Shown here piece by piece: positions 18,033 through 50,478 of a DNA stretch of 64,000 nucleotides (positions are counted from its first letter, which is position 1; each line of letters begins with the position of its first letter). A program made the translations under genes and the position numbers. The stretch covers positions 316-64,315 of the forward strand of contig DATNDE010000019.1 in NCBI GenBank assembly GCA_035553315.1, read 5' to 3'. The notes below the pieces were generated by a model, which did not search any database, was not told where the DNA came from, and saw only the letters and a list, made by a program, of their open reading frames with translations. The DNA is from Steroidobacteraceae bacterium. Lineage in GTDB: Bacteria > Pseudomonadota > Gammaproteobacteria > Steroidobacterales > Steroidobacteraceae.

Positions 18033-19397
18033 ATGCCCCCCATGCCGACATCGACCAACGCGCAACTTGCGGCACGCGACCTGGCGCACCTCTGGCATCC
18101 CTGCACCCAGATGAAGGACCACGAGCAGCTGCCGCCGATTGCGGTACGACGCGCCGAGGGCTGCTGGCTGGAAGACTTCGATGGGCATCGCTACCTCGAT
18201 GCCATCAGCTCCTGGTGGGTCAATCTCTTCGGACACTGTCATCCGCGCATCAGTGCGGCTGTCGGCGCGCAGCTGCAGCAGCTCGAGCACGTACTGCTCG
18301 CGGGCATGACACACGAGCCGGCCATCGAGCTCGCCGAGCAGCTCACGCGCATCGCTCCCGCCGGTCTGTCGCGCTGCTTTCTGGCCGACAACGGTTCGGC
18401 GGCCGTGGAAGTGGCGCTGAAGATGAGCTTCCACTATTGGCAGAACCACGGACGTGGCGGCAAGCGCCGCTTCGTGACGCTGTCCAACAGCTATCACGGC
18501 GAGACACTCGGCGCGCTGGCCGTCGGCAACGTGGAGCTCTACAAACAGACCTATCAGGCGCTGCTCATGCCCGTGCTCACGGCGCCCTCGCCCGACTGCT
18601 ACGAGCGCGAGCCCGGGCAGAGCTGGCAGGAACACAGCCGCGCGCGCTTCGTCGCGATGCGCACGCTGCTCGAGCAGCATGCCGCCGAGATCGCCGCGGT
18701 CATCGTCGAGCCGCTCGTGCAGTGCGCGGGCGGTATGCGCATGTACGACCCGGTCTACCTGTCCCTGCTGCGCGAGGCGTGCGACCATTTCGAGGTGCAC
18801 CTGATCGCCGATGAGATCGCCGTCGGCTTCGGGCGTACCGGCACACTGTTCGCCTGCGAGCAGGCAGGCATCCGTCCGGACCTCATGTGTGTCTCCAAGG
18901 GGCTGACCGGCGGCTATCTGCCGCTGTCGGCGGTGCTCTGCGGCGAGCAGGTCTACCAGGCCTTTTACGGCGACTACGCGGCGCAGCGCGCGTTTCTGCA
19001 CTCGCACAGCTACACGGGTAATCCGCTGGCCTGCGCCGCTGCGAATGCGACGCTGCAGATCTTCGCCACCACGCCGGTGCTGCAGGACAACCGCGCCCTG
19101 GCCGCGCACCTGGCCGCCCGCCTGGCGCCGCTGGCCTCCCACCCGCACGTCGCCGAGGTTCGCCAGACGGGCATGATCGCAGCGGTGGAACTGGTGCGCG
19201 ATCGCGCCACGCGCGAGCCCTGGCCCTGGCAGGAGCGGCGCGGCTGGACGCTGCATCGCCATGCCCTGTCGCGCGGAGTGTTGCTGCGCCCGCTGGGGAA
19301 TGTGGTGTACTTCATGCCCCCCTATGTCATCACGCCCGCCGAGATCGATCTCATGGTGCAGGTCGCCAGTGAGGGCATCGAGCGCGCCTGCGCCTGA
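18033..19397 (+). CDS. bioA: Adenosylmethionine-8-amino-7-oxononanoate aminotransferase
   Basis: DLAHLWHPCTQMKDH, ISSWWVNLFGH, and the class-III aminotransferase PLP region (ADEIAVGFGRTG, CVSKGLTGGYLP). Confidence 0.9.
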   Translation: MPPMPTSTNAQLAARDLAHLWHPCTQMKDHEQLPPIAVRRAEGCWLEDFDGHRYLDAISSWWVNLFGHCHPRISAAVGAQLQQLEHVLLAGMTHEPAIELAEQLTRIAPAGLSRCFLADNGSAAVEVALKMSFHYWQNHGRGGKRRFVTLSNSYHGETLGALAVGNVELYKQTYQALLMPVLTAPSPDCYEREPGQSWQEHSRARFVAMRTLLEQHAAEIAAVIVEPLVQCAGGMRMYDPVYLSLLREACDHFEVHLIADEIAVGFGRTGTLFACEQAGIRPDLMCVSKGLTGGYLPLSAVLCGEQVYQAFYGDYAAQRAFLHSHSYTGNPLACAAANATLQIFATTPVLQDNRALAAHLAARLAPLASHPHVAEVRQTGMIAAVELVRDRATREPWPWQERRGWTLHRHALSRGVLLRPLGNVVYFMPPYVITPAEIDLMVQVASEGIERACA

Positions 19398-19437
19398 GCG
19401 CCTCGCCAACCCCGCCGCCATCCCGGACAGTTCGTTT

Positions 19438-20202
19438 GTGCGTTTGACCCGCTGCTTCGTGTCCGAGCCGCTCCGCGCGCAGAGCGTCGTGCGTCTGCCG
19501 CAAGCCGCGGCCGTACACATCCGCCGCGTGCTGCGCCTGCGCGCCGGCGCCGAGCTCATCTTATTTGATGGTCACGGCGGGGAGTACGCGGCCACCCTCA
19601 CGGAAGGTGAGCCGCCGCGCGCGCAACTCGGCGCCCACCGGCAGATCGAGCGCGAGGCGCCGCTGCCGGTCACGCTGCTGCAGGGCCTGGCGCGCGGCGA
19701 GCGCATGGATTGGATCGTGCAGAAGGCCACTGAGTTGGGCGCGGCGGCGATCGCACCGGTGGCCAGTCGCTACAGCGTGGTGCAGCTCGAGGCGGCCGCG
19801 GCCGCGCGCCGTCTGGCCCACTGGCAAGCGGTAGCGATCGGTGCCTGCGAACAGTGCGGCCGTAACCGGCTGCCGCTCGTCCACCCGCTGCGCGAGCTGC
19901 CCGCCGCCTGCGCCGAGGTCGACGCGACGCTGCGTCTGCTGCTCGCGCCGGACGCGGACAGCTCGCTGCCTGAGCGGCTCGCGGCGGCGCTGGTGCCCGG
20001 CGGCACTGCGCCGTCCATCGCGCTGCTGGTCGGACCCGAAGGGGGACTGGCCGATGAGGAGATCGAGCTCGCCCGTCGGGCTGGCTTCACTGCCTGCACG
20101 CTGGGGCCGCGTACGCTGCGCACCGAGACGGCGCCGCTTGCCGCGCTCGCTGCGATTCAAACAGTCGCGGGGGATTTTCGCCGGCCAATTGGTTTAAGGT
20201 AG
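19438..20202 (+). CDS. rsmE: 16S rRNA (uracil1498-N3)-methyltransferase
   Basis: The GTG start gives VRLTRCFV... as in RsmE. The C-terminal LLVGPEGGLADEEI...LGPRTLRTETA SPOUT motif is present. Confidence 0.8.
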   Translation: MRLTRCFVSEPLRAQSVVRLPQAAAVHIRRVLRLRAGAELILFDGHGGEYAATLTEGEPPRAQLGAHRQIEREAPLPVTLLQGLARGERMDWIVQKATELGAAAIAPVASRYSVVQLEAAAAARRLAHWQAVAIGACEQCGRNRLPLVHPLRELPAACAEVDATLRLLLAPDADSSLPERLAAALVPGGTAPSIALLVGPEGGLADEEIELARRAGFTACTLGPRTLRTETAPLAALAAIQTVAGDFRRPIGLR

Positions 20203-36911: not shown

Positions 36912-37825
36912 GCTTGCCCTCCATGGCGCAGCCCGCCGCCGCACCGATCGCCCGCGCGCATCGCGGCACTATCTTTGTCGAGCAGGCCACGGTGCTCGCG
37001 CACACGCATTTCGCCGGCGAGCAGCACGTGCTGCGCGTCGCGGCCCCGCGCTGCGCGTCGCGCGCCGAGCCCGGCAGCTTTGCACACGTGCAGTGCTCGA
37101 TGGATCTGCCCATGCGCCGGCCCATGTCCATCATGCGCGCGAGCGTGCGTGATGGTTGGATCGAGCTGCTCTACAAAGTGGTCGGAGCCGGCTCGCGTGC
37201 CTTGGCCCGTGTGCAGCCGGGCGAGTCGCTGAGCCTGCTGGGTCCCATCGGCCGCGGGTTCACGCCTCACGCGCAGCGCCCGCGCGTGCTCGCCCTCGGC
37301 GGCGGAGTGGGTATCCCGCCGATGGTGTTCCTCGCCGAGCGGCTGGTGGAAGCCGGCGCGCCGTGGAAGCCGCTGGTCCTCATGGGCTCGGAGCTGCCCT
37401 TCCCGTTTCGCAGCCGCCCCTCCACCATCCTGACCCCCGGCATGCCCGATGAGGCCATCGGCTGCATGCCGCTGCTGGATGAATGGGGCGTGCCTTCACG
37501 CCTCGCGAGCCTGGCCGGCTTCGCCGGTTGTTTCGAGGGCTATGTCACCGAGCTCGCGCGCCGCTGGCTTGGCTCGCTGAATGCCGCCGCCCGCGCCGAA
37601 GTGGAGATGTTCGCCTGCGGTCCAACGCCGATGCTAGCCGCCTGTGCGCGCCTCGCCGCCGAATTCGACCTGCCCTGCCAGGTGTCGCTCGAGGAGTTCA
37701 TGGCCTGCGCCGTGGGCGGCTGTGCTGGCTGCGCCGTCCCGGTCCGCACCCCGGACGGCAGCACCTCGATGAAGCGCGTGTGTGTCGACGGGCCGGTATT
37801 TGAGGCCAGCCATATCTTTGGCTGA
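36908..37825 (+). CDS. PyrK-like FAD/[2Fe-2S] electron-transfer subunit (dihydroorotate dehydrogenase B-type partner family)
   Basis: PGSFAHVQC..MRRPMSIM, LGPIGRGF, ALGGGVGIPPM and FACGPTPM, with the C-terminal cluster motif CAVGGCAGCAV...RVCVDGPVF. Its ATG overlaps the pyrB stop (ATGA). Confidence 0.75.
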   Translation: MSLPSMAQPAAAPIARAHRGTIFVEQATVLAHTHFAGEQHVLRVAAPRCASRAEPGSFAHVQCSMDLPMRRPMSIMRASVRDGWIELLYKVVGAGSRALARVQPGESLSLLGPIGRGFTPHAQRPRVLALGGGVGIPPMVFLAERLVEAGAPWKPLVLMGSELPFPFRSRPSTILTPGMPDEAIGCMPLLDEWGVPSRLASLAGFAGCFEGYVTELARRWLGSLNAAARAEVEMFACGPTPMLAACARLAAEFDLPCQVSLEEFMACAVGGCAGCAVPVRTPDGSTSMKRVCVDGPVFEASHIFG

Positions 37826-38165
37826 TGGCACCGACTCGTTGCCGGCGGGGACGGCGTAACCCCGGTCCCAGAAGTAATAGTCCATGGCGCCGAGGGCAAC
37901 AACCGTCACCAGCAGCGCCGCCAGCGCCTGCTTGAGATCCGAAGACACGAGGCTGACTCCCGAAGGTGACCCGGCGCGTCCCGCGCTCCGCGCTGCAAAC
38001 TCCGTACCGCCGCCCGAGAGAGCCTCGGCTGCCGCTCGACGCTCCCGCGTCGGGATTCGGCGCCGATTGCAGGCATTCCTTACAAACAAACAGGCAGTTT
38101 TGAATGTTCCCATCATCGCTGGCAGCGTGCACATTCACGCATATCTTCCGACGCCCGAGGACCGG

Positions 38166-38783
38166 ATGATGGAAGCGGAGCAAGTCAGAGAACTGCTGCT
38201 GCAGTCGCTCGAGCACGAACGCGGCAGCGTCGATGTCTATCAGATCGCGATCAAATGCGCGCGGCGCGATGATTTGAAGGATGAATGGGAGCGGCGCATT
38301 TTCGATACGCGCGAGCGTGAGCTGCTGCTGACCGAAGTGTGCCGCAAGCTAGGCATCAACCCGGAGCATATGACCTGTGGCCGTGAGGTCAGCAAACATC
38401 TTGGTGCGGCGCTGAGCTCCGCAATGGAGCTGGCGCATGAATCGGGCCAGCTGAAGACCGCACAACTCATCGCCGCCGAGTGCGTCACACTCGCCGAGAC
38501 CACCACCCACTCCAATTGGCAGCTGCTCGCGCAATGTGCGCGCCACAGCGCCGAGGATGAAAAGGACGTGCTCGCTGCGGCGGTGGGTGCAGTCGAGGAT
38601 GAAGTGCATAAGCACTACTACCGCGCGCACGGCTGGCAGCGCGAGCTGCACCTGCAAGCCCTCGGCATCCAGGCCATCCTGCCCCCGCCGGAGGAGCGCG
38701 AGGAGGTCATGACCCCGCTCAGCGCCGCGCACGTTGAGCAGGGCCGTCAAAGCGACAGCCTGGGATCTCAGCGCAGCAGTTGA
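38166..38783 (+). CDS. Hypothetical helical protein, possibly ferritin-like / four-helix bundle
   Basis: 205 aa, all-helical in character, with E-x-x-H-like motifs (LEHERG, EDEVHKH). Preceded by the most AT-rich patch of this region. The ORF upstream of 38166 looks non-coding. Confidence 0.4.
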   Translation: MMEAEQVRELLLQSLEHERGSVDVYQIAIKCARRDDLKDEWERRIFDTRERELLLTEVCRKLGINPEHMTCGREVSKHLGAALSSAMELAHESGQLKTAQLIAAECVTLAETTTHSNWQLLAQCARHSAEDEKDVLAAAVGAVEDEVHKHYYRAHGWQRELHLQALGIQAILPPPEEREEVMTPLSAAHVEQGRQSDSLGSQRSS

Positions 38784-38786
38784 TCG

Positions 38787-40091
38787 CTAGCGAAGGGTGT
38801 ACAGATAGGCGGTGATATCCCGCGCCTGATCGTCGGACAGCCCGCTGTCGGGCATGGCATTACCGGGCAGAACACTCTGCGGACTGCGCAGCCACTCAAT
38901 CATGTTCTCAGGGGTGTTGCGCAGCAGGCCCGCGATGTAGATCCGTCTCGCCATCTGCGTCAAGGGCGGTCCGACGAGCCCGCTCGCATCATTGATACCG
39001 GGCACCACGTGACAGGCCCCGCAGCCCGCGGCGCGGATGAGATCCGCTCCGCGTTGTGGGTTGCCGATATCCGAGGCGGCCACCGGATCATTCGCCGCGT
39101 TTGCTGCAGCCTGGCTCGAGCCGCAGCCGGACAAGCTCAACAGCAACAGGCCACAGCCACAGATCAGCAACGCCATGGAAGCGGCCCGCCCGGCGATCGG
39201 CTTCGCAGGCGATGTACGGCCGTGCGCTGTGGTGGCGATGGTTGCGGCCATGGTCGCCCGCCGTGTGGCACGCGCGTGCCGTGCGGGGTGACGGCTTTCG
39301 TCGAATTGCAGCCAGCGCACAATGGCACCACCCGCGGCAATCAGATACACGATTCCGCCCGGCAGCCACATCAGCAGCCCCGCCAGCTGCTGATCCTCCA
39401 GCAGTGACCAGCCCCAGCGCGCCGTGCTGCTCGCGTAGTCCGGATACAGCGGGGTTGCCGCCAGTGTGATCACTGCGCCCGGCAGCGAGCTCACCACCGC
39501 CGTTGCGAGCACGAACAGCAGCGTCGCACCGTAACTGAGCCGACGCCGGCCGGACGGCTCGATGACGATGGTCCAAAACATTAGCGCGCTGGCCAGGAAA
39601 GTCACATGCTCGAATGTGTGGACGGTCTCGTCGTGCAACGCCCACTGGTAGGGACCGGGCAGGTGCCAGCCGATGAAGACACCGCAGAACAGTCCCCACA
39701 CCACGATCGGATGCATGAGCCCGTTGACGCCAGCGGTGATTCCCAGCGCGCGCCACGCGCAGCCGAGACGCTTGCGGCCCACGGGGCCAAAGGCCCACAG
39801 GAACGCGACCGCGGGCCGGCCCCATACCAGCAGCGGGGCCGCGACCATCAGCAGCAGCATGTGCTCGAACATGTGCGCCGAGAACAGCTGGTCTGCCAGC
39901 TCATCCAGCGGGGACAACAGCGCCAGCACCAGCGTCAGCTCGCCACCGAGATAGCACAGCAGCTGGCGCGGCCCATACAGCGGTGCAAGAGCGGGCAACT
40001 GCCGCAGTCGGGCAAACCCGATGAGGTACCACAGCGTGCTGACCGCAATCGGCACCAACACCGCGGGCTCGGCGCTCCAGTGCAAAGCCAT
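38787..40091 (-). CDS. Caa3-type cytochrome oxidase assembly factor CtaG fused to a C-terminal mono-haem cytochrome c domain
   Basis: Polytopic N-terminal part with FSAHMFEHMLLLMVAAPLLV (Caa3_CtaG signature). This is followed by a basic linker, a lipobox-like LLLLSLSGC, then CGACH...GNAMP. ATG 40091 overlaps the upstream stop (ATGA). Confidence 0.7.
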   Translation of the reverse strand: MALHWSAEPAVLVPIAVSTLWYLIGFARLRQLPALAPLYGPRQLLCYLGGELTLVLALLSPLDELADQLFSAHMFEHMLLLMVAAPLLVWGRPAVAFLWAFGPVGRKRLGCAWRALGITAGVNGLMHPIVVWGLFCGVFIGWHLPGPYQWALHDETVHTFEHVTFLASALMFWTIVIEPSGRRRLSYGATLLFVLATAVVSSLPGAVITLAATPLYPDYASSTARWGWSLLEDQQLAGLLMWLPGGIVYLIAAGGAIVRWLQFDESRHPARHARATRRATMAATIATTAHGRTSPAKPIAGRAASMALLICGCGLLLLSLSGCGSSQAAANAANDPVAASDIGNPQRGADLIRAAGCGACHVVPGINDASGLVGPPLTQMARRIYIAGLLRNTPENMIEWLRSPQSVLPGNAMPDSGLSDDQARDITAYLYTLR

Positions 40092-40540
40092 CAGTACACG
40101 CACAGGCGCACCAGCCCCATGGCGATAGTCTCGGTAGAGCAGATCAGAAAGAACATCGCACCGAAGGCCATGCCGATGATGCCCAGGAAGCGAGTGCGGC
40201 CTTCGCCCTTCTCCATGAGCTGATGGGCATGCCCTTCCTCGGGGCCGGTCAAGCGCCACATCCGATATGAGAGCAACGACGCGCTGATGCTCAGAACGAT
40301 TCCCGCCAGATGGATCGCGAGCACCCCGGCCCAGACCCAGCCGAAGCCCGCCATCGGCGAAGCCAGCGGCTCCATGCCGGGATAGCAGGCATGCCCCACC
40401 AGGGAATAATCGGTCATCAGGTCCAGCCCGGCGGCGATCGGCGCGCCGAACACACTCGTCAACCAAAGCGCGGTGCTGATCCGATGGCGGTACGGCGCCG
40501 GATGATGTGCCAGGCTATAGGCAACGAATTCCTCCGCCAT
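40091..40540 (-). CDS. Unknown integral membrane protein of the oxidase operon
   Basis: 149 aa with about 4 predicted TM segments and a His-rich N-terminus (SLAHHPAPYRH). Both ends are ATGA-coupled to neighbouring genes. Confidence 0.55.
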   Translation of the reverse strand: MAEEFVAYSLAHHPAPYRHRISTALWLTSVFGAPIAAGLDLMTDYSLVGHACYPGMEPLASPMAGFGWVWAGVLAIHLAGIVLSISASLLSYRMWRLTGPEEGHAHQLMEKGEGRTRFLGIIGMAFGAMFFLICSTETIAMGLVRLCVY

Positions 40541-41166
40541 CAGTGCACCTGGTAGGGTTTCCAGCCGAAATAGGGGGTGACATCGAGCGTGAAGAGCACG
40601 ATCAGCCAGACGATCGTGACGAAATACCAATAGATCTTCGCCACCTTCACCGGCGTGTGCCGCACCGGGCCGAAGTAACCGAGCCCCGACCACAGCAGCA
40701 CCACGGCAAACATGATGACGCCCACCACGACGTGCGCGAGGTGAAAGCCGGTGATGAGGTAATAGAAGGAGCTGTAGGGGTCGGTCGCAAAGCCGGTCGG
40801 CTGGTGGTACCAGTCCAGGCCCTGCAGGGCGACGAATCCAAGCGAGAGCAGCAGGCTTACCGCCAAGCCCGACAGCAGCCCGGCGCGATCGCCGCGCGCG
40901 ACCGCGCGGTTGGCCCACCACACGCTCAGGCTACCGGCGAAGGCGACCGCCGTCTCCCAGCCCGGATAGAACCAGCTCGGAGGGCCGTCCGGCGGCCAGG
41001 GCCCGTAGTGCGGCTGGCTAGAGAAGTAGAAATACCCAAAGGCCAGGTAGGCGAAGATCATCGATTCCGAGATGACCAAAAACACCACGCCCCAAGTGCC
41101 TGACGCCATGCGTCCAATGCTGCCCATGGGCAGCGGCGGCTGAACCGGAAAGGCTTCAGAGGACAT
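40540..41166 (-). CDS. Cytochrome c oxidase subunit III
   Basis: YYLITGFHLAHVVVGVIMF and WYFVTIVWLIVLF are COX3 motifs. Start is ATG 41166 (11-nt overlap with subunit I) or ATG 41127. Confidence 0.8.
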   Translation of the reverse strand: MSSEAFPVQPPLPMGSIGRMASGTWGVVFLVISESMIFAYLAFGYFYFSSQPHYGPWPPDGPPSWFYPGWETAVAFAGSLSVWWANRAVARGDRAGLLSGLAVSLLLSLGFVALQGLDWYHQPTGFATDPYSSFYYLITGFHLAHVVVGVIMFAVVLLWSGLGYFGPVRHTPVKVAKIYWYFVTIVWLIVLFTLDVTPYFGWKPYQVH

Positions 41167-43105
41167 CGGCCGGCACCTCGCGTTGGCCAGCCTCGGCGAG
41201 TGGCCAGAGCCAGACGACCGAGAGGATGACGGTGAGCAGCGCCCCGGCACCGGCGCACCACCACGATCGGCTCACCAATCCCGCAAACAGCACCGACAGC
41301 GCGCAGGTGGTGAGCAGCGGCATGTACGATTCGCTCGGCATCTTCAGAATGACTTCGGGCTCGCCATCCATCGCCGTGACGCCGAAGGTCTCATGATGGT
41401 GATCCAGCACCGCACCTCTCTCGAGCACGCTCTCGCCATCGCCTTCCTTCAGCCGTTTCTCCCACAGCGGATGACGGCTTGCCACGGAAGGAATGACCGG
41501 AAAGTTGTAGGGCGGAGGCGGTGAGGTCGTGGCCCACTCGAGTGAGTGTGCATCCCAGGGATTGCGCCCGGCACGCACGCCGTAGCGCTTGCTGTAGAAG
41601 ACGTTGATGAAGAACAGCAGGATGCCGACCGTCAGCACGAAGGCGCCGACCGTACTGATCAGGTTGGGGATGTGCCAGCCGATGCCCGCCGGGTAGGTAT
41701 AGACCCGCCTCGGCATCCCGGCGAGACCCGTGATGTGCATGGTGAAGAAGGCCACATTGAAGCCGATGAACATCGTCCAGAAGTTCCACTTGCCGAGCTT
41801 CTCGTTGAGCATTCGACCCGTCATCTTGGGGAACCAGTAGTACATACCGGCCATGACCGCGAACAGGTTCCAGCCGATGAGCACGTAGTGAATGTGCGCC
41901 ACGACCCAGTAGGTGTCGGTGAGCTGCCAATCCACCGGCGCAGCGCCGCTCATGAAGCCGGACACACCCCCGATGACGAATACGAACATGTAGCCGGCGA
42001 GGAAATGAAAGGCGGTGGTGAAAACTGGCCGGCCCGTGTAGATGGTGGCCAGCCAGCAGAACAGCTGCACCCCGCTCGGCAACGTGATCAGGATGGAAGT
42101 CGCGGCGAAGAAGGCCATGCCGAGCGAGGGCAGTCCGGTGGCAAACATGTGGTGCAGCCAAACACCGAAGCCGATCATCATGGTGAGAATGGTCGACAGC
42201 ACGACCGCCGTGTAGCCCACCAGCGGCCGCCGGCAGAAGGTCGGCAGCAGGTCCGAGACGATGCCCATCGCCGGCAGCACGATCATGTAGACCCAGGGAT
42301 GTGCAAACATCCAGAACAGGTGTTGCCACAGCAACGGCTGCCCGCCATTGCTCGCGTTGAAGAAATGCGCGCCAAAGTTGCGGTCGAGCCAGAGCATGAT
42401 GCAGGCGACGCTGACCACCGGCACGGCAAACAGCCCCGCGGCATTCGCGCTGAGCGTGCCCCAGATGAGCACCGGAAAGCGATTGACCGACATGCCGGGA
42501 CAGCGCGTGCGCAGCGTCGTGACCAGGAAGTTGACGCCGCCCGCGGTCAGCGACAGCCCGAAGAACACCAGCGAGAGCGTATAGAAGTCGATGTTGGGTC
42601 CCGGATTGAACTGCCGCGAGGCCAGCGGCGTGTAGTTGAACCAGCCGTCGTTCGGGGGCGCCCCCACCAGCCAACTGCTGTACAGGAACAGTCCCGAGGC
42701 GAGGAACAGCCAGTAGGAAAAGGCGTTGAGGCGCGGGAACGCCATGTCGCGCGAGCCGAGCAGCAGCGGCCAGAGATAGTTGCCGAAGCCGGACAGGATC
42801 GGAAAGGCATACCAGAAGATCATGGTATTGCCGTGCATGCTGAAGATCTCGTTGTACTGCTGCGCCGTCAGCAGATGCCCATTGGGACCGGCGAGCTGCA
42901 GCCGCATGAACAGCGCCTCGATCCCGCCGAGCACCAGGAAACCGAAGGCGGTCACCAGGTACATGACCCCGATCTCTTTGTGATCCACCGTGGTGAGCCA
43001 GCGCCGGATGCCGGGCTTGGATTTCCACATCTGCTCGAGCTTGTGCTCGAGCTGCGGGTTCGGTGACTGGATCTCCGGAATGCGTTCGAATGGGGTGGCA
43101 CTCAT
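41156..43105 (-). CDS. Haem-copper oxidase subunit I (atypical)
   Basis: 649 aa with all six metal-ligand His contexts recognisable: FSMHGNTMIFW, FAHPWVY, WLHHMF, AHIHYVL. Confidence 0.9.
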   Translation of the reverse strand: MSATPFERIPEIQSPNPQLEHKLEQMWKSKPGIRRWLTTVDHKEIGVMYLVTAFGFLVLGGIEALFMRLQLAGPNGHLLTAQQYNEIFSMHGNTMIFWYAFPILSGFGNYLWPLLLGSRDMAFPRLNAFSYWLFLASGLFLYSSWLVGAPPNDGWFNYTPLASRQFNPGPNIDFYTLSLVFFGLSLTAGGVNFLVTTLRTRCPGMSVNRFPVLIWGTLSANAAGLFAVPVVSVACIMLWLDRNFGAHFFNASNGGQPLLWQHLFWMFAHPWVYMIVLPAMGIVSDLLPTFCRRPLVGYTAVVLSTILTMMIGFGVWLHHMFATGLPSLGMAFFAATSILITLPSGVQLFCWLATIYTGRPVFTTAFHFLAGYMFVFVIGGVSGFMSGAAPVDWQLTDTYWVVAHIHYVLIGWNLFAVMAGMYYWFPKMTGRMLNEKLGKWNFWTMFIGFNVAFFTMHITGLAGMPRRVYTYPAGIGWHIPNLISTVGAFVLTVGILLFFINVFYSKRYGVRAGRNPWDAHSLEWATTSPPPPYNFPVIPSVASRHPLWEKRLKEGDGESVLERGAVLDHHHETFGVTAMDGEPEVILKMPSESYMPLLTTCALSVLFAGLVSRSWWCAGAGALLTVILSVVWLWPLAEAGQREVPADVL

Positions 43106-43114
43106 GGCGGGTGG

Positions 43115-44101
43115 CTACTCCAGGGTTTCCAGATAGCTCCGGATATCGGTGAGCTGGCTCCCGGAAAGAGCGACCGCCGGCATCAGATTGCCCGGTTTGA
43201 TGTGCTGCGGGTCGGCGATCCATCCGGACAGGTCCCCGGGCGTATTCGGCAGCGTGTCGGCGCCGATCGATGCGCGGCTCATCAGATGGGTGAGATCAGG
43301 ACCCAGTATCCCGTCGGCCGTAGTGCCGCGAACCCGGTGGCAGATGCCACAATGCACCTGGAAATCCTGCTGGCCCTGAGCGGCCAGCGCCGAGTCTGGC
43401 GGCGCCGCTGGCTGCAGCTGCTGTGCCTTCCAGGCGGCAAACTGCGCGGGTTCCTGCGCCACTACGGCAAAGGCCATGTGCGCGTGTTGCAGGCCGCAGT
43501 ACTCACCGCACTGTCCGCGATAGGTTCCGGGCCGGTCGGCCTCCAGCCAGGTGACGTTCTCGTAACCCGGAATCACGTCGGTCTTGCCGGTGAGCTGTGG
43601 CACCCAGAAGGAATGGATGACGTCGTCGCTGTGCAGCTTGAAATACACCCGCACACCGGTGGGTATGTGAATCTCATTGGCCGTGACGAACTGCTGCGCC
43701 GGGGAGCTGCTCTCGTAGCGCACCTCCCACCACCATTGATGAGCAATGATGTCGATCGTCATCGGGGGTGCAGGCTGCTGCGGACGGATGCTCACCGCAT
43801 CGAGCGTAAAAAATGTCCAGATCGCGGTTGCTAGCAGCAGCGCCGCGGAGATACCGGTGCCGATGTAGACCAGGCTGAGGCCCCGGCCGCCGCGCTCGAG
43901 CGGCACAAGGTTGATGGCGTCGGAGCGCAGATGCGCGTCGGTGGCGTCTCGGCGTTCACGTAACCGTCGCAGTATGCCGGCCAGCGTCAACACCGTGATC
44001 GCGGCGACGACGATGAGCGAGAGGATGATCAGTGCCCAGAGCAGATGGACGACGGGATAGCCCTTGGTGCCAAACGCGACGGTGTAGTTCAGCGGTCCCA
44101 T
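43115..44101 (-). CDS. Cytochrome c oxidase subunit II with fused C-terminal cytochrome c (caa3 architecture)
   Basis: Two N-terminal TM helices, a CuA site (HSFWVP...CGEYCGLQHAHM), and a C-terminal CGICH...NLMP haem c domain. Confidence 0.9.
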   Translation of the reverse strand: MGPLNYTVAFGTKGYPVVHLLWALIILSLIVVAAITVLTLAGILRRLRERRDATDAHLRSDAINLVPLERGGRGLSLVYIGTGISAALLLATAIWTFFTLDAVSIRPQQPAPPMTIDIIAHQWWWEVRYESSSPAQQFVTANEIHIPTGVRVYFKLHSDDVIHSFWVPQLTGKTDVIPGYENVTWLEADRPGTYRGQCGEYCGLQHAHMAFAVVAQEPAQFAAWKAQQLQPAAPPDSALAAQGQQDFQVHCGICHRVRGTTADGILGPDLTHLMSRASIGADTLPNTPGDLSGWIADPQHIKPGNLMPAVALSGSQLTDIRSYLETLE

Positions 44102-44104
44102 GCG

Positions 44105-44890
44105 CTATTTGGCCTGCTTTACGGCGGCCTCCGGCTTTTGACCGAAACTGAAGGGCTCCGTGTAGGCCCACGGGTTCGACGTCGTCTCGAATTCCGCCGG
44201 CACCTGCTCGCGCGTCATGGTTTTCAGAGAGATGGTCTGACCCCATTCGCTCTGTGGAGCGCGGCTGATCTGGCGCACGTAGGCCACGAGGTCCCACACG
44301 ACCGAATCCGGCAGCAGACCGCCCCACGCCGGCATGCCCTCCGGGCGGCCCTGCACGATCGTCAGATAGATGTTCGCCGGATCATCGCCATACTTGAAGA
44401 AGCGGTCACTCAGGGACGGCCCCATGCCACCGCCGCCATTGGAGGCGTGGCAGCCGACGCAATTGAAGGCATTGAAATAGCGCATGCCGCGCTCGGGCGC
44501 GGCCGGATCGTTGCCAACGGGGTTCGCGATCGGCGGGCGAGTCGGAATGCCTCCCGGGAAGAGGTTCGGCACCGGGGTTCGCAGCAGCGCCTCCGTGCCT
44601 CCGTACTGCTCGATCGGCAGGCGGCCCACTTCATCGGGGAGGCTGTGTACCGGAGGGCCCGGAATTTCCTCCTGCGCAAGCGCCGCGGGATTCGAAGTGG
44701 CGCCCGGGGCGTAGGGGTTGGCAAGTTGCGGCTTTCTGGGGACCGTGTTTTCCCCGGCCGGAGTTTGCGGCGCAGGGGTCGTCGGCTGAGGTCCGGGCTC
44801 CTGCGCGGCAGAGCTCCCGGCAACCAACAGCGTCACGAGGGCGGCCGCGAGGCCTGCCCGTCGTGTTGGACGATCAATCATTCGCGCCAT
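44105..44890 (-). CDS. Secreted mono-haem c-type cytochrome with a Pro-rich linker
   Basis: Signal peptide, a PQPTTPAPQTP linker, then CVGCH...GMPAW. AGGAGGA lies upstream. Start is ATG 44890 or GTG 44893. Confidence 0.8.
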   Translation of the reverse strand: MARMIDRPTRRAGLAAALVTLLVAGSSAAQEPGPQPTTPAPQTPAGENTVPRKPQLANPYAPGATSNPAALAQEEIPGPPVHSLPDEVGRLPIEQYGGTEALLRTPVPNLFPGGIPTRPPIANPVGNDPAAPERGMRYFNAFNCVGCHASNGGGGMGPSLSDRFFKYGDDPANIYLTIVQGRPEGMPAWGGLLPDSVVWDLVAYVRQISRAPQSEWGQTISLKTMTREQVPAEFETTSNPWAYTEPFSFGQKPEAAVKQAK

Positions 44891-44907
44891 CACTCCTCCT
44901 GCGGCGG

Positions 44908-45876
44908 TTAGGCGCCGGGGCGGCGCCTTCCACCGCCGACGATGCCGACCCCCGAGTGCGCCAGGTTCTCGCCGTTGAAGCTCACCGGATTGATCAGGGG
45001 CACCCCGAAGCGCTCCAGCACGCGCTCGATCTCGGGGCGGTTCTGCTCGATGACGGCGCTGAGTGCGCGTCGCAGCGCATCGTCCCCGTGTCGCACGCCC
45101 ATCGAGATCTGGAACTGCATGCTCTGCAGGCCGAAGTGATCCTTTCGTGTGCTGAAGGCATCACCGTCCGTGATGAGCGCGACGCGCAGCGGCACCGGTG
45201 ACTGCTGCGCCAGACGCCCCACGGCCGGTCCCCACACCGCCGCCACGTCGATCTGGCCGCGCGCCAACGCCTGAACGATCGCCGCTCTGGGGTTCTGTTG
45301 CGAACCTGTGCCGTTGGGCGCCGTGCCCGGCGCGCCGATATCAAAGGGAATGAGATGATCGGCGAGACCCGCTTCCATCAGCACGTGTGCCGGTGGCGTA
45401 AAAAGGCCGCGTCTGCCGATGGCCTCGACGCCGATGCGCAGCTTTTTCAGATGCGGATCCTTCAGCGAATCCATCTGCAGATGGCGATCCGCGCGCGTCA
45501 GCAGCACATAGCTCGACCAATAGTAGGGCACGGTCGTGTCCATGCCTGGTGTGGGCTTCGGCTCGGCGATCACCGCATCGCAGGCGCTCAGCGCGGGCTG
45601 CAGCGCGGCCAGATCGACATCGGGTCGCAGCCAGACGTATTGCAGCTGTCGTCCCAAGCGGCGCGCCACCAGCGCCGCGATCTGGTTCTCGAACCCCTCG
45701 CCACGGCGATCGGAGAACGGCATGTTGTTGCTCTCCGCGCACATCCGCAGCGGCGGCGCTGCCGCAGACCACCCCAGTGTAGGGACCCCCAGCGCAAGCG
45801 CCAGCCCGGCCAATAGCAAACTCCGGACCCGTCCTGATGGTGCATCGGCTGTTGCGAACTCGGACTTTCGCTGCAT
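44908..45876 (-). CDS. MoxJ/XoxJ-like quinoprotein-dehydrogenase-associated periplasmic binding protein
   Basis: Signal peptide, then LRMCAESNNMPFSDRRGEGFENQIA... typical of the MoxJ-type SBP-like family. It lies directly downstream of a PQQ dehydrogenase. Confidence 0.75.
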   Translation of the reverse strand: MQRKSEFATADAPSGRVRSLLLAGLALALGVPTLGWSAAAPPLRMCAESNNMPFSDRRGEGFENQIAALVARRLGRQLQYVWLRPDVDLAALQPALSACDAVIAEPKPTPGMDTTVPYYWSSYVLLTRADRHLQMDSLKDPHLKKLRIGVEAIGRRGLFTPPAHVLMEAGLADHLIPFDIGAPGTAPNGTGSQQNPRAAIVQALARGQIDVAAVWGPAVGRLAQQSPVPLRVALITDGDAFSTRKDHFGLQSMQFQISMGVRHGDDALRRALSAVIEQNRPEIERVLERFGVPLINPVSFNGENLAHSGVGIVGGGRRRPGA

Positions 45877-45930
45877 GGCCCTCTCCCCATGACGCCGGCA
45901 CCACGCACCACACGCGCCGCCGCGTCTTTC

Positions 45931-45954
45931 ATCTATCTATCTATCTACCTACGT
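45931..45954. repeat. Tetranucleotide microsatellite (ATCT)4 plus ACCT ACGT
   Basis: atctatctatctatctacctacgt. On the coding (minus) strand this reads TAGG(TAGA)4, and it contains the TAG stop of the PQQ dehydrogenase. Confidence 0.9.
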
Positions 45955-47921
45955 ACCCCTCGTGCCGCATTGCGCACCCCCGCTCCGTGCGCCTGCGCAG
46001 CGCTCTGCAGGGCCAGCGCTTTTTCACGAGCATGTGGCAGCGCACTCGCCGCTGAGCCCGTCGTCGCCCGCGGCAGCGCGAATACCATCAATGTGCTGCC
46101 ACCGGCCGTATAGGCAGGAAGGTCCTGCATCGCTCCCGTGAAGCCGAGTGCGCCGTTGCGCACGCGCGGATCGATTTCTGCATTCGCCACGGCGCCCGGC
46201 CAGCCGCCCACGCCGCATAGAATGGCGACGTACTGCCGGCCGTCACTTCCCTGATAGCTCACCGGTTGACCGATGATTCCCGACGGCGTCTGTATCTGCC
46301 AGAGAATGTGCCCGGTGCGCGCATCCACGGCCTTGAACCAGCGGTCCATCGTGCCGTAGAAGGCCACGTCGCCGCCCGTGACGAGCGCCCCGCTCCACAC
46401 GGGAAAGTTCTCGTGAATTGCCCACACCTTCTTGTGGTGCTCGACATCCCAGGCCATGAATTCGCCGCGATACCCACCGGGGGCGGCATACATGTCGACC
46501 GTCGCGCCAACGTAGGGCGTCCCCGCGATGTACGCCACCTCGGAGGTCTTCCAGTTCATGCACAGATGCTGGTGCGGGACATAGAGCAGATGCGTACGGG
46601 GCGAATACGCCGAGGGCTGCCAGTCCTTGGCTCCGTCCGCGTTTGGACAGATGTCGGTCACCGTCTTGCCGGGCAGCGGCGTCTTGGCGGGGTTCCTGAT
46701 CGGTCGCCCGGTTTTCAGATCGATGCCGAACGTTGCGTTGATGGTGTCGTAGCCTGTCGCGGAGAAGACCTCGCCGGTGCGTGGATCGAGCTGATAGATA
46801 TAGCCGTTGCGGCCTACGTGCACGAGTCTTTCCTCAGGCCGCCCGTTGACCGGCACATCGATCAACAGGCTCTCATTGATCTCGTCGTAATCGAACACGT
46901 CATGCGGTGTGTATTGATACGCCCACGTCGCCTGGCCGGTGTCCGGATCACGCGCGAATTCCGTGGTGGTCCACAAGTTGTCGCCGGGACGCTGGTTGTT
47001 GTTCCAGGGCGATGGGTTGGCGGTGCCGTAATAGATGAGGTTGAGGCTCGGCTCATACTGAATCCAACCCCACATCGTCGCCCCGCCGATCTTCCACATG
47101 CCCGGCGGCCAGGTGCTGACGCCGAGGTCCTTGCCGATCAGATCCTTGTAGTAGGGTTTGAAGTTCGGCCCGATCAACACGTCCTTGTCCGGGCCGGTGC
47201 CGTAGGCACGCCAGGCGATCTTGCCGCTGTTCTCATCCACGGCCGTGACCCAGCCGCGCACGCCCAGCTCCGAGCCGCTGTTTCCCACCAGCACCTTGCC
47301 CTTGACCACCAGCGGCGCCATGGTGACCGTCATGCCGGTATTGAAATCGCCGAGCAGGGTATGCCAGAGCTCCTGGCCCGTCTGCGCATCGATGGCGACC
47401 AGGTAATCATCCAGCGTTGCGAGGAATACCTTGCCGTGATCGTAGGCCAGCCCACGCGTGACCACATCGCAGCAGGCCTCTCCCTCTGCGGCCGGGTTCG
47501 GCTTGGGGGCATAGGACCACTTCAGCGCGCCGGTGGTCGCATCGAGCGCGAACACCTGATTCGGATGCACGCCGAAGTATGGCCCTACCACGTACATCGT
47601 GTTGTTGATGATCAGCGGCGCCGCTTCCTGGCCGCGGTTCGCGCCTACGGAAAAGCTCCACGCAAGAGTGAGCTTGGAAGCGTTGGCGGTATTGACCTGA
47701 TCGAGGGGGCTATAACGGGTGTTGGCGTAATTGCGCGGTGCCATCGGCCACTGTCTAGGATCCTTCGCGAGCGTCTCGAGATCCTCGGAACTGTCGGCCG
47801 TGTCGGCCGGCGGGGCCTTCGCCTGCGCATGCGGACGCTGTGCCGCAAACGCCGGGGCCAACATGCATGCAGAGGCTATCAGGGCCGCCCCCAGGACGGC
47901 TAGGCGCGGCGCTGCGCTCAT
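45945..47921 (-). CDS. PQQ-dependent dehydrogenase, methanol/ethanol family (XoxF/ExaF-like)
   Basis: Signal peptide, vicinal Cys pair (GEACCDVVTRGLAY), propeller W-motifs, and TPHDVFDYDEIN (D-Y-D). ATG 47921 overlaps the upstream stop (ATGA). Confidence 0.9.
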   Translation of the reverse strand: MSAAPRLAVLGAALIASACMLAPAFAAQRPHAQAKAPPADTADSSEDLETLAKDPRQWPMAPRNYANTRYSPLDQVNTANASKLTLAWSFSVGANRGQEAAPLIINNTMYVVGPYFGVHPNQVFALDATTGALKWSYAPKPNPAAEGEACCDVVTRGLAYDHGKVFLATLDDYLVAIDAQTGQELWHTLLGDFNTGMTVTMAPLVVKGKVLVGNSGSELGVRGWVTAVDENSGKIAWRAYGTGPDKDVLIGPNFKPYYKDLIGKDLGVSTWPPGMWKIGGATMWGWIQYEPSLNLIYYGTANPSPWNNNQRPGDNLWTTTEFARDPDTGQATWAYQYTPHDVFDYDEINESLLIDVPVNGRPEERLVHVGRNGYIYQLDPRTGEVFSATGYDTINATFGIDLKTGRPIRNPAKTPLPGKTVTDICPNADGAKDWQPSAYSPRTHLLYVPHQHLCMNWKTSEVAYIAGTPYVGATVDMYAAPGGYRGEFMAWDVEHHKKVWAIHENFPVWSGALVTGGDVAFYGTMDRWFKAVDARTGHILWQIQTPSGIIGQPVSYQGSDGRQYVAILCGVGGWPGAVANAEIDPRVRNGALGFTGAMQDLPAYTAGGSTLMVFALPRATTGSAASALPHAREKALALQSAAQAHGAGVRNAARGVRR

Positions 47922-48754
47922 TGCTGCACCGCCTTGTTCCACTCGGGAACGTAGCCGGAATGGATCTGCTCGGCGATCTCGGTCTCGCGTCCACCGCACT
48001 GTGGATGGCCCCATCCGGACACGCTGACTCTGGAAGGCAGCATGTCGTAGATGATGGCGTCGTCATGACCTGGACTGACGCCGTTTGGAACATGACCCAT
48101 GCTTAGGGCATCTCTCACGCGCCACGCAACGTTATGGTCCGCGCACGACGTGTCGCCGCTGACTCCAAGCGCGCCAACGAGGTTGCCGTCCTGATACAGC
48201 GCCAGCCCGCCACCGAATACCACTACGCCGCCAATATGCTGGCCGAGCATGGGATCCTTGTCCGTGCCGTAGGTGCTCGGCGCTCCTGCGTAGAGCAGCG
48301 AGGAAACCGGCGGGTTGGTCGTGATCACCCCATACATGGATCCTCCGGAGGCGGACGCTGCGTAAAGGTTCGCAGTGGAGATGGCCATCTGTTTGAGGCT
48401 TACGGCGTTGGCCGTAGTGGCCTTCTCCGCGGCGATGGCGCGGCTGGCGAGCCACTGATCCGTCGCGGCTTTGCCACTCATCGTCACCGCGCAGACCGTG
48501 CCGTCGCGATTGACGACGACCGCCCATTCGTTGTTGTCAAAGCCGCCGTTGCTCGGTCCGCCACTCGCCTTGACGCTGCGCTTGAGCGCCTGCGTGAGAT
48601 TCGCGTGTGTTACAGGACAGTTCTGCGCGAGCGCGCTCGGGAGGCTGAACAGACTTGCGCCCAGTCCGGCCAGCAGCAGAGCGGTCACCCTGCATAGTCT
48701 GCAATGGCCTTGAACGCCCGGCGGGATGCGGCGATGTCGAAGCAGCATGGGCAT
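47918..48754 (-). CDS. Secreted GlcG/HbpS (DUF336)-like protein with a C-terminal extension
   Basis: Signal peptide (..PSALAQ), then DUF336-like WAVVVNRDGTVCAV...SRAIAAEKATTA...GGGLALYQDGNLVGALGVSGD. First gene of the operon. Confidence 0.65.
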   Translation of the reverse strand: MPMLLRHRRIPPGVQGHCRLCRVTALLLAGLGASLFSLPSALAQNCPVTHANLTQALKRSVKASGGPSNGGFDNNEWAVVVNRDGTVCAVTMSGKAATDQWLASRAIAAEKATTANAVSLKQMAISTANLYAASASGGSMYGVITTNPPVSSLLYAGAPSTYGTDKDPMLGQHIGGVVVFGGGLALYQDGNLVGALGVSGDTSCADHNVAWRVRDALSMGHVPNGVSPGHDDAIIYDMLPSRVSVSGWGHPQCGGRETEIAEQIHSGYVPEWNKAVQQ

Positions 48755-48859
48755 AGCTCATCCTTACGGCGCACCGGCGCCATCCAGTCCTCACCCTGCC
48801 CGGAAAATCCTGCGGTCTTGAAACCGTCCGCACGTTAGCGAGCGCTGTCGCGGATTTCA

Positions 48860-49366
48860 CCCAGCCTGATTCCCATCCGCAGTACGACTTCGCCGACAAA
48901 TGCAATCCGGTGCAATGGCTGGCGGATTCACAGCACTCCGTGCATTACTTGGCGACCCAAAGCGCGCCGGCGCTACGGTGAAGAACTTCGCGCAGCGGAT
49001 GACCCACGACCACACGCTCGCCATCGACCAACTGCAGGCCGTCGCTTCCAGCCATGGCCTGCAAATCCCGGCCGGCATGCCGACCAGGGACCAGAAGTCA
49101 TTCGATGAGCCGAAAGGCCGGAATGGTGTCGGACCGGACACGCACTACAGCGACGACCAGGTAAAGGTTCACAAACGGGCCGTCGCCCAGTTCAATAGCG
49201 CGCCGCGAAGCAATCCAATCTGCTGCCGGCGGTGCGCGAATACGCCCGCAAGACGGTCCCCTCGCTCCAGGAGCATCTGGCGCAGCAGCTGGTGGCTACG
49301 GAATCGGGGCAATCATTCGGCCGGTTGAACACTACCGCGCCAGGCGTTCGCCAAGCGAGCCGCTAG
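48860..49366 (+). pseudogene. Decayed DUF4142-family gene (frameshifted, N-terminus missing)
   Basis: Family-like segments lie in different frames. VKNFAQRMTHDH...VKVHKRAVAQF is in one frame. LLPAVREYARKTVPSLQEHLAQQL is in the +2 frame after about 49199, where a TAG at 49196 blocks that frame upstream. DFADK... upstream is in yet another frame. Confidence 0.55.
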
Positions 49367-49371
49367 CCACC

Positions 49372-50478
49372 TCAGCCGAAGTTGATCTTCGCCTCGAGAT
49401 TGGTACGCGAGTCCGCGTACATCAGCGCTTCCTCGAGCGTAATGCGTCCCTGCTTGAACAGCTTGTGCAGGCTCGAATCGAAGCTGCGCACGTCCTTGTC
49501 GCCGCTCTGCATGATCGATTCCTTGATGCTCATGACGTCGCCGCGCTTCACGAGCTCGGCGATGTGCGGCGTGTTCATCATGACTTCGATGGCCGCGACG
49601 CGCTTGTTGTCCACGCCCATGACCAGGCGCTGCGCAAGGATCGCGCGCAGATACTGCGACAGGTCCAGCGTGACCTGCTTGAACTGGTCCAGCGGGAACA
49701 TATTGATGATGCGGTCCAGGCTCTCGGCGCAATTGTTGGCATGCAGAGTCGCGAGCACCAGGTGACCCGTGCCGGCCAGATTGATGGCCGCCTGCATGCT
49801 CTCGCGATCGCGGATCTCACCGATCAGAATCACATCGGGTGCCGCACGCACTACCGCACGCAGCGCTGCGGCATAGGTGCGCGTATCCAGTCCGACCTCG
49901 CGCTGATTGATGATCGAGCGCTTGTTGGCGTGCAGGAATTCGATCGGATCCTCGATCGTAACGATATGATCCGAGGCGCTCTCGTTGCGATGATTGATCA
50001 TCGCCGCCAGCGTCGTGGACTTGCCCGAACCGGTGGCACCGACGACCAGGATCAGGCCGCGCTTGAGCATCGCGAGGTCCGCGCAAACCTCCGGCAGGCC
50101 AAGTCCGTCCACGCGCGGCATGTCCGCGCTGATATAGCGCAGCACCATCGCAGGGTAGCCGCGCTGATAAAAAATATTGACGCGGAAGCGCCCGAGCCCC
50201 GACTCGCTGATCGCAAAGTCGATCTCCAGGTCGCGCTGGAACTGCTCGAGCTGCTCGGGATTCATGAGCCCGAAGCAGATCGAGCGCACGGCCGAGGGCG
50301 ACAGCACCTGCTTGTTGATCGGGAAAATCTGCCCTTCGATCTTGATCTTGATCGGCGCGTTCGAGGTGAAGAACAGATCCGATGCCTTGCGGTCCACCAT
50401 CAGCTGGAACAGCGGCTTGGTGTTCAGCGTGGTCTGGGTTTCGCTGACCGGCAAGTCGATTGGGTCGGTGACAGCCAT
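49372..50478 (-). CDS. Second PilU-like type IV pilus retraction ATPase paralogue
   Basis: 368 aa with Walker A GATGSGKSTT, Asp box, Walker B DVILIGEIRD and His box GHLVLATLHAN. It lacks the PilT AIRNLIRE motif. It lies 4 nt downstream of pilU. Confidence 0.85.
   Translation of the reverse strand: MAVTDPIDLPVSETQTTLNTKPLFQLMVDRKASDLFFTSNAPIKIKIEGQIFPINKQVLSPSAVRSICFGLMNPEQLEQFQRDLEIDFAISESGLGRFRVNIFYQRGYPAMVLRYISADMPRVDGLGLPEVCADLAMLKRGLILVVGATGSGKSTTLAAMINHRNESASDHIVTIEDPIEFLHANKRSIINQREVGLDTRTYAAALRAVVRAAPDVILIGEIRDRESMQAAINLAGTGHLVLATLHANNCAESLDRIINMFPLDQFKQVTLDLSQYLRAILAQRLVMGVDNKRVAAIEVMMNTPHIAELVKRGDVMSIKESIMQSGDKDVRSFDSSLHKLFKQGRITLEEALMYADSRTNLEAKINFG

Follow-up and report, generated by a model that had tools for sequence, protein, structure and literature searches.

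The subject of this analysis is a set of nine genes on the minus strand of a 64,000-nucleotide stretch of DNA (hereafter the window) from a metagenome-assembled genome of a Steroidobacteraceae bacterium (assembly GCA_035553315.1, contig DATNDE010000019.1). The genes encode a XoxF-type dehydrogenase that depends on pyrroloquinoline quinone (PQQ), its partner proteins, and a haem-copper oxidase with an assembly factor. The locus is probably a horizontally acquired cassette, in which a XoxF3-type methanol dehydrogenase system is combined with its own caa3-like A-family oxidase. It is a real and strongly conserved cassette, a fresh instance, acquired by transfer, of a kind that is known but experimentally uncharacterised. 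The best reading is that its products would form a self-contained path that leads from a periplasmic PQQ dehydrogenase by way of c-type haems to an oxidase of its own, with the assembly factor supplied as well. This reading is strengthened by the linkage seen in two search directions, the strand that is kept, the carriage on plasmids and the acquisition as a block.

A sequence-only reading of this DNA had proposed that dehydrogenase and oxidase belong together, and had called for a neighbourhood search with both genes as queries. That search found the linkage of XoxF and CoxI to be conserved in both directions and on the same strand. When genomes were scanned with the XoxF query, 52 loci were found at an identity of at least 50%. 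CoxI lies on the same strand in 44 of these (downstream in 32, upstream in 12), and the only loci with more than 9.5 kb on both sides and yet no cox genes are L023 and L047. The reverse scan of metagenomes with the CoxI query gave 80 loci; XoxF is present in 55 of them, on the same strand in all but one (54), and L120 is the single locus that lacks XoxF although both sides leave room for it. Nearly all exceptions to the linkage in the two scans are truncated contigs. The same set of genes turns up in about 100 independent loci, which puts the arrangement far outside what chance would give, and the strand is kept even where the gene order differs. The same cluster is also annotated on plasmids of the cultured Methylocystis iwaonis, Mesorhizobium sp. 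B1-1-8 and Methylocella tundrae.

In the window, the whole cluster sits in an island that is missing from two contigs of related Steroidobacteraceae (L144 and L145). The flanks on these contigs have the same gene order and 88-90% DNA identity, and the homology ends at 37825 and restarts at 49372. These boundaries are the stop codons of two convergent genes, a pyrK-like gene (ending at 37825) and pilU (ending at 49372). At the same site the relatives carry 187 nt (11108-11294 in L144), a spacer between the two convergent genes that contains a long inverted repeat. At the island ends, a search for a target-site duplication, for terminal or boundary repeats and for a remnant of the ancestral spacer gave short matches at chance level only, and no integrase was found. 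The XoxFs closest to that of the window belong to Alphaproteobacteria, Stellaceae among them. The most closely related cluster is L146, whose XoxF is 84% identical and which carries the same block in a different genomic context. In L146 an intact DUF4142 gene of 202 amino acids (aa) stands at the position where the window has a decayed remnant; the C-terminus of this remnant, which the gene caller did not call, continues in another frame. A 205-aa gene convergent with ctaG is shared only with the L146 island (19165-19770) among the loci compared, and its product has a weak match to the ferritin-like family DUF892 (E = 0.035). The simplest explanation is that the whole cassette was horizontally transferred as one block, and the location of the cluster in an island looks new.

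All nine open reading frames that the sequence-only reading had placed between 48754 and 38787 are found there, and an independent gene caller calls the same nine on the source contig. Its gene labels are likewise all backed by Pfam and NCBIfam profile searches, with the 149-aa frame, which it had left as unknown, falling into no family (Table 1). Signal peptides and the expected membrane helices were found in the cluster proteins, as well as three haem c motifs of the form CxxCH (CVGCH, CGICH and CGACH). The MoxJ/XoxJ-like protein scores 200 bits with the MoxJ-type model TIGR03871, slightly below the cut-off of 212. It is less certain where the first gene begins, as NCBI calls a 256-aa product that would start at the GTG at 48688. 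The NCBI proteins of the locus are HWG76583 to HWG76592. Two of them (HWG76586 and HWG76587, at 41156-44101) carry the public names 'cbb3-type cytochrome c oxidase subunit I' for CoxI and 'c-type cytochrome' for CoxII. Going by the profile matches, which point to an A-family CoxI and a CuA-containing CoxII, these names are misleading.

Table 1. Features of the nine-gene cluster and of the island that holds it, in window coordinates.
Feature	Coordinates	Strand	Evidence
Secreted DUF336/GlcG/HbpS-like protein, 278 aa	47918..48754	-	PF03928, E = 1.8e-11; signal-peptide-like N-terminus
XoxF-type dehydrogenase of the methanol family, lanthanide/PQQ-dependent, 658 aa with signal peptide	45945..47921	-	TIGR03075, 624 bits
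Intergenic gap between xoxF and xoxJ, the only sizeable one	45877..45944	-	Sequence and RNA fold
MoxJ/XoxJ-like periplasmic binding protein, 322 aa, signal peptide	44908..45876	-	TIGR03871, 199.9 bits; TIGR03870 (MoxJ), 142 bits
Secreted mono-haem cytochrome c, 261 aa	44105..44890	-	PF13442/PF00034; CVGCH at residue 144
CoxII with fused C-terminal cytochrome c domain	43115..44101	-	COX2 and Cytochrom_C; CGICH at residue 251
CoxI, A-family haem-copper oxidase, 649 aa	41156..43105	-	PF00115, 501 bits
CoxIII, short, five-helix, 208 aa	40540..41166	-	PF00510, E = 4e-21; hydropathy
Three-helix membrane protein between CoxIII and CtaG, 149 aa	40091..40540	-	No Pfam/NCBIfam family
Caa3_CtaG with C-terminal periplasmic cytochrome c domain, 434 aa	38787..40091	-	PF09678, E = 4.8e-58; PF00034; CGACH at residue 357
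Window-specific segment (island) holding the whole cluster, 11,546 bp	37826..49371		blastn against two related Steroidobacteraceae contigs, L144 and L145
Hypothetical gene inside the island, convergent with ctaG, 205 aa	38169..38783	+	Gene call; 62% identity to the L146 neighbour
Decayed remnant of a divergent DUF4142 gene at the upstream island edge, N-terminally truncated, frameshifted	48900..49371	+	PF13628, E = 3.7e-14; partial open reading frame

The dehydrogenase scores well above the cut-off of 480 bits for the methanol/ethanol family model (PQQ_enz_alc_DH), and its best match in the PDB is XoxF2 of Methylacidiphilum (4MAE, 608 bits). Structures of XoxF5, MxaF and XoxF1 match at 522-536 bits, within an overall range of 464-608 bits for XoxF and MxaF, compared with 289-345 bits for the ethanol dehydrogenases PedH and ExaA. 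An identity as an exa/ped-type ethanol dehydrogenase is thus ruled out by PDB scores that clearly favour the methanol dehydrogenase family. In lanthanide-dependent enzymes a coordinating Asp lies two residues past the catalytic Asp, at a position where MxaF has Ala. The window protein has this Asp-Tyr-Asp motif (FDYDEINE, residues 343-350), all 96 of the 96 cox-linked XoxF homologues have Asp-x-Asp, and the MxaF reference in the alignment shows DYA. A vicinal Cys-Cys pair (ACCD) is equally invariant among the cox-linked homologues (96/96). The Glu, Asn and Arg of the SolV active site are aligned in the window dehydrogenase when it is compared with 4MAE; we take these to be Glu172, Asn256 and Arg326 in SolV numbering. 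Oxidation of methanol that depends on lanthanide and PQQ is predicted for the window XoxF.

A neighbour-joining tree was built in which the references were sequences taken from the PDB alignments, a set in which XoxF4 is not sampled. The cox-linked XoxFs form one clade in this tree (100/100 bootstrap replicates), apart from XoxF1, XoxF2, XoxF5 and MxaF, and the clade is sister to XoxF1 plus XoxF2 (97/100). The identity of the window XoxF to the solved XoxF and MxaF references is 45-52%. An identity as XoxF5 was considered and is ruled out by the separate position in the tree and by an identity of 46-47% to the solved XoxF5 structures and to an annotated XoxF5. The cox-linked clade is taken to be the XoxF3 of the literature, an assignment made by exclusion and gene context and not by labelled references.

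The oxidase that accompanies this clade has the architecture of a caa3 enzyme. The best PDB match of CoxII is subunit II of the Thermus caa3 oxidase (2YEV_B) and covers both of its domains, and the CuA ligand motif H...CGEYCGLQHAHM is complete in the query line of that alignment. CoxI was aligned to QoxB of B. subtilis and the columns were counted over 112 relatives, the window included. The six His ligands and the cross-link Tyr (H91, H269, Y273, H318, H319, H404 and H406) are conserved in 112/112; both haem-propionate Arg residues are kept as well. In the classification of Pereira, the A1 subtype has a Glu in the helix VI motif HPEVY and the A2 subtype has a Tyr-Ser (YS) pair one turn earlier. 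Helix VI of the window CoxI reads FAHPWVY, with Trp271 in place of the D-channel Glu, and this Trp is found in every one of the 112 relatives. The A2-type YS motif is absent from the set, where the preceding pair is FG, FA or WG, and the window CoxI has the hallmark of neither subtype. A conserved Lys of helix VIII (K362 in R. sphaeroides numbering) marks the K channel of these enzymes. This Lys is absent as well: the window has Gln347, and the 112 relatives have Ala (62), Gln (20), Ser (14), Gly (12) or Thr (3), and never Lys. The entrance of the D channel is kept (Asp120 and Asn127 in 112/112, Asn109 in 100/112), and the His of the Mg site is replaced by Thr (Thr396) in 108/112. Residues specific to the Trp-type CoxI are Tyr99 in helix II, Cys291, Ser185, Asn192 and Thr396. 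The linked oxidases of Bradyrhizobium and Mesorhizobium have kept the Glu but also lack the K-channel Lys; in those of Bradyrhizobium, Asp120 is often Asn. A limited literature search, which included channel terms and Acidobacteria, found no report of the Trp substitution (HPWVY), and within that literature an oxidase with Trp for Glu and no K-channel Lys looks new.

How these residues should be interpreted can be seen in more than one way. It is possible, though we put it forward tentatively, that the XoxF3-linked oxidase is an unrecognised third subtype of the A family, with a full redox centre and D-channel entrance, an invariant Trp, and neither the YS pair nor the Lys. Protons would then take another route, for instance through Tyr99 of helix II, or the enzyme would be non-pumping; the suggestion that Tyr99 might take over the role of the Glu comes from its position in the helix. 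A different explanation is that the haem-copper enzyme is not a conventional proton-pumping O2 reductase, but either a non-pumping electron sink, which would draw off electrons (and oxygen) for a detoxifying dehydrogenase of the periplasm, or an enzyme that reduces something else, such as nitric oxide. The exchange of the gating Glu for Trp in all 112 sequences, the missing YS motif and K-channel Lys, and the exchange at the Mg site in 108 of 112 count in favour of it. The K-channel Lys is missing too from the oxidase of the rus operon, likewise the partner of a single periplasmic donor. We nevertheless regard this explanation as unlikely, since the set conserves the six His ligands together with the cross-link Tyr and the two haem-propionate Arg residues, the entry domain has CuA and haem c as in true caa3 oxidases, and the retained D-channel entrance suggests that protons still enter from the cytoplasmic side.

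The junctions between the nine genes measure, in order, -4, +68, +17 (or +14), +3, +9, -11, -1 and -1 nt. The list given by the sequence-only reading holds for the ATGA overlap between the DUF336 gene and xoxF (47918-47921), for the 11-nt overlap of coxI and coxIII (41156-41166) and for the gaps, whereas the overlaps at 40540 and 40091, which it had also given as ATGA, are 1-nt TGATG overlaps and not 4-nt ones. The gap between xoxJ and the cytochrome c gene is +17 with an ATG start and +14 with the GTG start used in that reading. In the stretch 45877-45947, which takes in the gap between xoxF and xoxJ, a (TAGA)4 microsatellite run overlaps the xoxF stop codon. It is followed by a G+C-rich hairpin without a T-run and then by the ribosome-binding site GGAGAGGG for xoxJ. 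An 88-nt stretch that includes the gap folds at -27.2 kcal/mol, and the hairpin might change the relative stability of the xoxF segment of the mRNA and the segments downstream. No promoter-like sites were found in a scan of 38000-49600, and terminator-like sites in the same range are no commoner than in shuffled sequence. On the coding strand the terminator-like sites all lie inside genes, and none was found in the intergenic gaps, including 45877-45944 on the minus strand. The overlapping or near-touching junctions, together with gaps free of terminators on the coding strand, were counted in favour of one unit, and the nine genes are predicted to be co-transcribed.

The two partners were also compared across loci. 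Within the Trp-type set, the distances of XoxF and CoxI are correlated with r = 0.64. The figure falls to r = 0.29 when every locus is taken in, because in Bradyrhizobium a XoxF that is closely related stands beside an oxidase that is distant: here XoxF is about 70% identical, CoxI is of the Glu type and about 47% identical, and the oxidase lies upstream of xoxF. A XoxF of the same clade next to a Glu-type CoxI (45-48%) was observed in L013-L018, L020, L046 and L055 (Bradyrhizobium) and in L062 (Mesorhizobium). From the mismatch in Bradyrhizobium it follows that the pairing of XoxF and oxidase was rebuilt at least once, and it seems to have formed more than once.

These results bear on the possibility that the locus consists of two independent units that happen to travel together, namely a xoxFJG operon and a general caa3 oxidase that serves the whole pool of cytochrome c. 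The 68-nt gap with its hairpin after xoxF would be a natural border between two such units, the position of cox either upstream or downstream of xoxF would be easily explained, and so would the Bradyrhizobium loci and the low overall correlation. Three loci with room on both sides (L023, L047 and L120) in fact carry one half alone. Even so, we consider this account improbable, because linkage on the same strand is near universal in both search directions and across phyla, and because the block was gained whole. In Bradyrhizobium the pairing was rebuilt around another oxidase, which points to selection on the pairing itself.

The reading as a horizontally acquired cassette with its own oxidase has several points against it. 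The genes are not always in the same order: many loci have cox upstream of xoxF, and in most of the soil metagenome loci cox comes first, so that the linkage needs no single fixed operon. The 68-nt gap with its stable hairpin could split the cluster into two transcripts or shift their ratio. The island holds no genes for haem A synthesis and no regulator. A CoxI that lacks the canonical Glu and Lys of the proton channels may not be assumed to work as a normal oxidase. The XoxF3 label was reached indirectly, as described above, and a residue reported for the XoxF3 group of Methylobacteriaceae/Methylobacterium, Trp300 between two Asp residues (PMC8561711), is absent: the window has Tyr, and the 96 homologues have Tyr, His, Phe or Thr, never Trp. 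This Trp was reported for one XoxF3 subgroup only and may not define the whole clade. In addition, no XoxF3 enzyme has been biochemically characterised (PMC10875860), and XoxF3 is barely expressed in Methylocella silvestris (PMC9291206). In Methylosinus trichosporium OB3b, cerium induces a protein named XoxF3.

If the cassette reading is followed, the path would run as follows; its course, its substrate and O2 as its acceptor are inferred. In the periplasm XoxF would oxidise methanol or a small alcohol or aldehyde related to it, and the electrons would pass to the secreted cytochrome c and from there to the cytochrome c domain fused to CoxII. From this haem c they would reach the haem-CuB centre of CoxI by way of CuA and the low-spin haem, and O2 would be reduced there. 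Maturation of the copper centre would fall to Caa3_CtaG, to which the third cytochrome c domain is fused, and the 149-aa membrane protein may be a conserved subunit or an assembly factor.

The accessory proteins of the cluster are less well understood. The DUF336 gene is a conserved accessory of many XoxF-cox clusters, as a homologue annotated 'heme-binding protein' adjoins xoxF in the loci of Stellaceae, Bradyrhizobium and Mesorhizobium. The PDB matches of its product are weak, the better one being to the C-terminal domain of PduO (4.5e-5). A very weak match (E = 0.0078) was observed to EfgA, the formaldehyde sensor of Methylorubrum. Periplasmic binding of formaldehyde by the DUF336 protein would fit beside a methanol dehydrogenase, and is offered as a lead, not as a finding. 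The mono-haem cytochrome c sits at the position of XoxG, has a Pro-rich linker of about 100 residues and matches MoxG weakly (26.7 bits).

For the 149-aa protein, a family search gave nothing in Pfam (even at E = 1) or in NCBIfam, and its 50 homologues are all annotated 'hypothetical'. The alignment of these homologues shows invariant Cys52 and Cys147, the motifs HACYPG and GEGRxR, and conserved His residues. An AlphaFold model has three membrane helices with a predicted local distance difference test (pLDDT) score of 82, and when the PDB was searched with it in Foldseek, no match fell below E = 0.15 and template modelling (TM) scores stayed under 0.4. A role as a CtaF/CoxIV-type subunit, as in solved oxidases, finds no support in this fold search. 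Hydropathy and charge predict that both Cys residues face the periplasm, and together with the conserved His residues they suggest a disulfide or a copper site. A small hypothetical gene between CoxIII and CtaG has been noted in published clusters (Voutsinos 2024, PMC10875860). Next to it, CtaG and cytochrome c form one protein in the window and are encoded by two adjacent genes in L146 (17775-19087) and in the Mesorhizobium locus L062 (17093-18365); the fused form is either a recent gene fusion or the result of a sequence error at the junction.

The sequence-only reading had not recognised the arrangement as a described system, which was wrong, since clusters of xoxF3, cox and ctaG have been published since 2014 (PMC4013037, PMC10875860). 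Keltjens et al. 2014, as cited by Voutsinos et al. 2024, noted cox and ctaG in xoxF3 operons, and Voutsinos et al. themselves found the cox/ctaG arrangement in 12 of 12 Acidobacteria genomes that bear XoxF (PMC10875860). The published clusters come mainly from Acidobacteria, Gemmatimonadetes and Verrucomicrobia (PMC10875860), whereas the window comes from a genome labelled Steroidobacteraceae. It also differs from them in having xoxF before cox, a secreted DUF336 gene attached and CtaG fused to cytochrome c.

On the side of the oxidase, Degli Esposti et al. 2014 defined a 'COX operon type a-II' (PMC4013037), to which the window is alike in its COX1-COX4-like fusion, five-helix COX3, Caa3_CtaG and CoxII-cytochrome c. 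In the window CoxI, hydropathy shows two extra hydrophobic C-terminal helices at 593-640, which on that evidence would be the COX1-COX4 fusion of Degli Esposti; the fusion described for this operon type (PMC4013037) explains why a CoxI of this length has two helices more. Operons of this type often adjoin a PQQ dehydrogenase related to MxaF (PMC4013037), as in the window, and the type was later renamed A1 subtype a (PMC6431628). The filing under A1 does not agree with the window CoxI and its 111 relatives, which have Trp for the A1 Glu, and lack the A2 YS pair and the K-channel Lys.

Two further systems can be compared with the cassette. The rus operon of Acidithiobacillus, which serves iron oxidation, follows the same logic in that a periplasmic electron donor is encoded together with c-type cytochromes and an A-family oxidase of its own, and its aa3-type oxidase shares the loss of the K-channel Lys with the window CoxI. 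It differs in that the donor is Fe2+, by way of Cyc2 and rusticyanin, in having no PQQ enzyme, and in an oxidase that is described as A2 type with the D channel retained. The canonical xoxFGJ (XoxF5/1/2/4) and mxaFJGI clusters have a homologous dehydrogenase (45-52%), a MoxJ/XoxJ partner and a dedicated cytochrome c. Unlike the window, they end at the cytochrome and feed general oxidases, with no cox or ctaG genes.

XoxF3 is reported to be the most abundant type of methanol dehydrogenase in several metagenomes from soil and rock (PMC10875860, PMC7646524). Provided that the cassette functions as proposed here, many soil bacteria could acquire a full methanol-to-oxygen branch by a single transfer, independent of the oxidases of the host, and the island in the window together with the plasmid copies in cultured strains indicates that such transfers do occur. 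Cultured carriers exist in Methylocystis iwaonis SD4, Mesorhizobium sp. B1-1-8, Methylocella tundrae T4 and several Bradyrhizobium species. The missing proton-channel residues lead to a testable question, namely how much energy the branch conserves, and this is the most interesting open point. Should the oxidase indeed be a third subtype of the A family, respiration from methanol to oxygen by way of the cassette would differ energetically from textbook methylotrophy.

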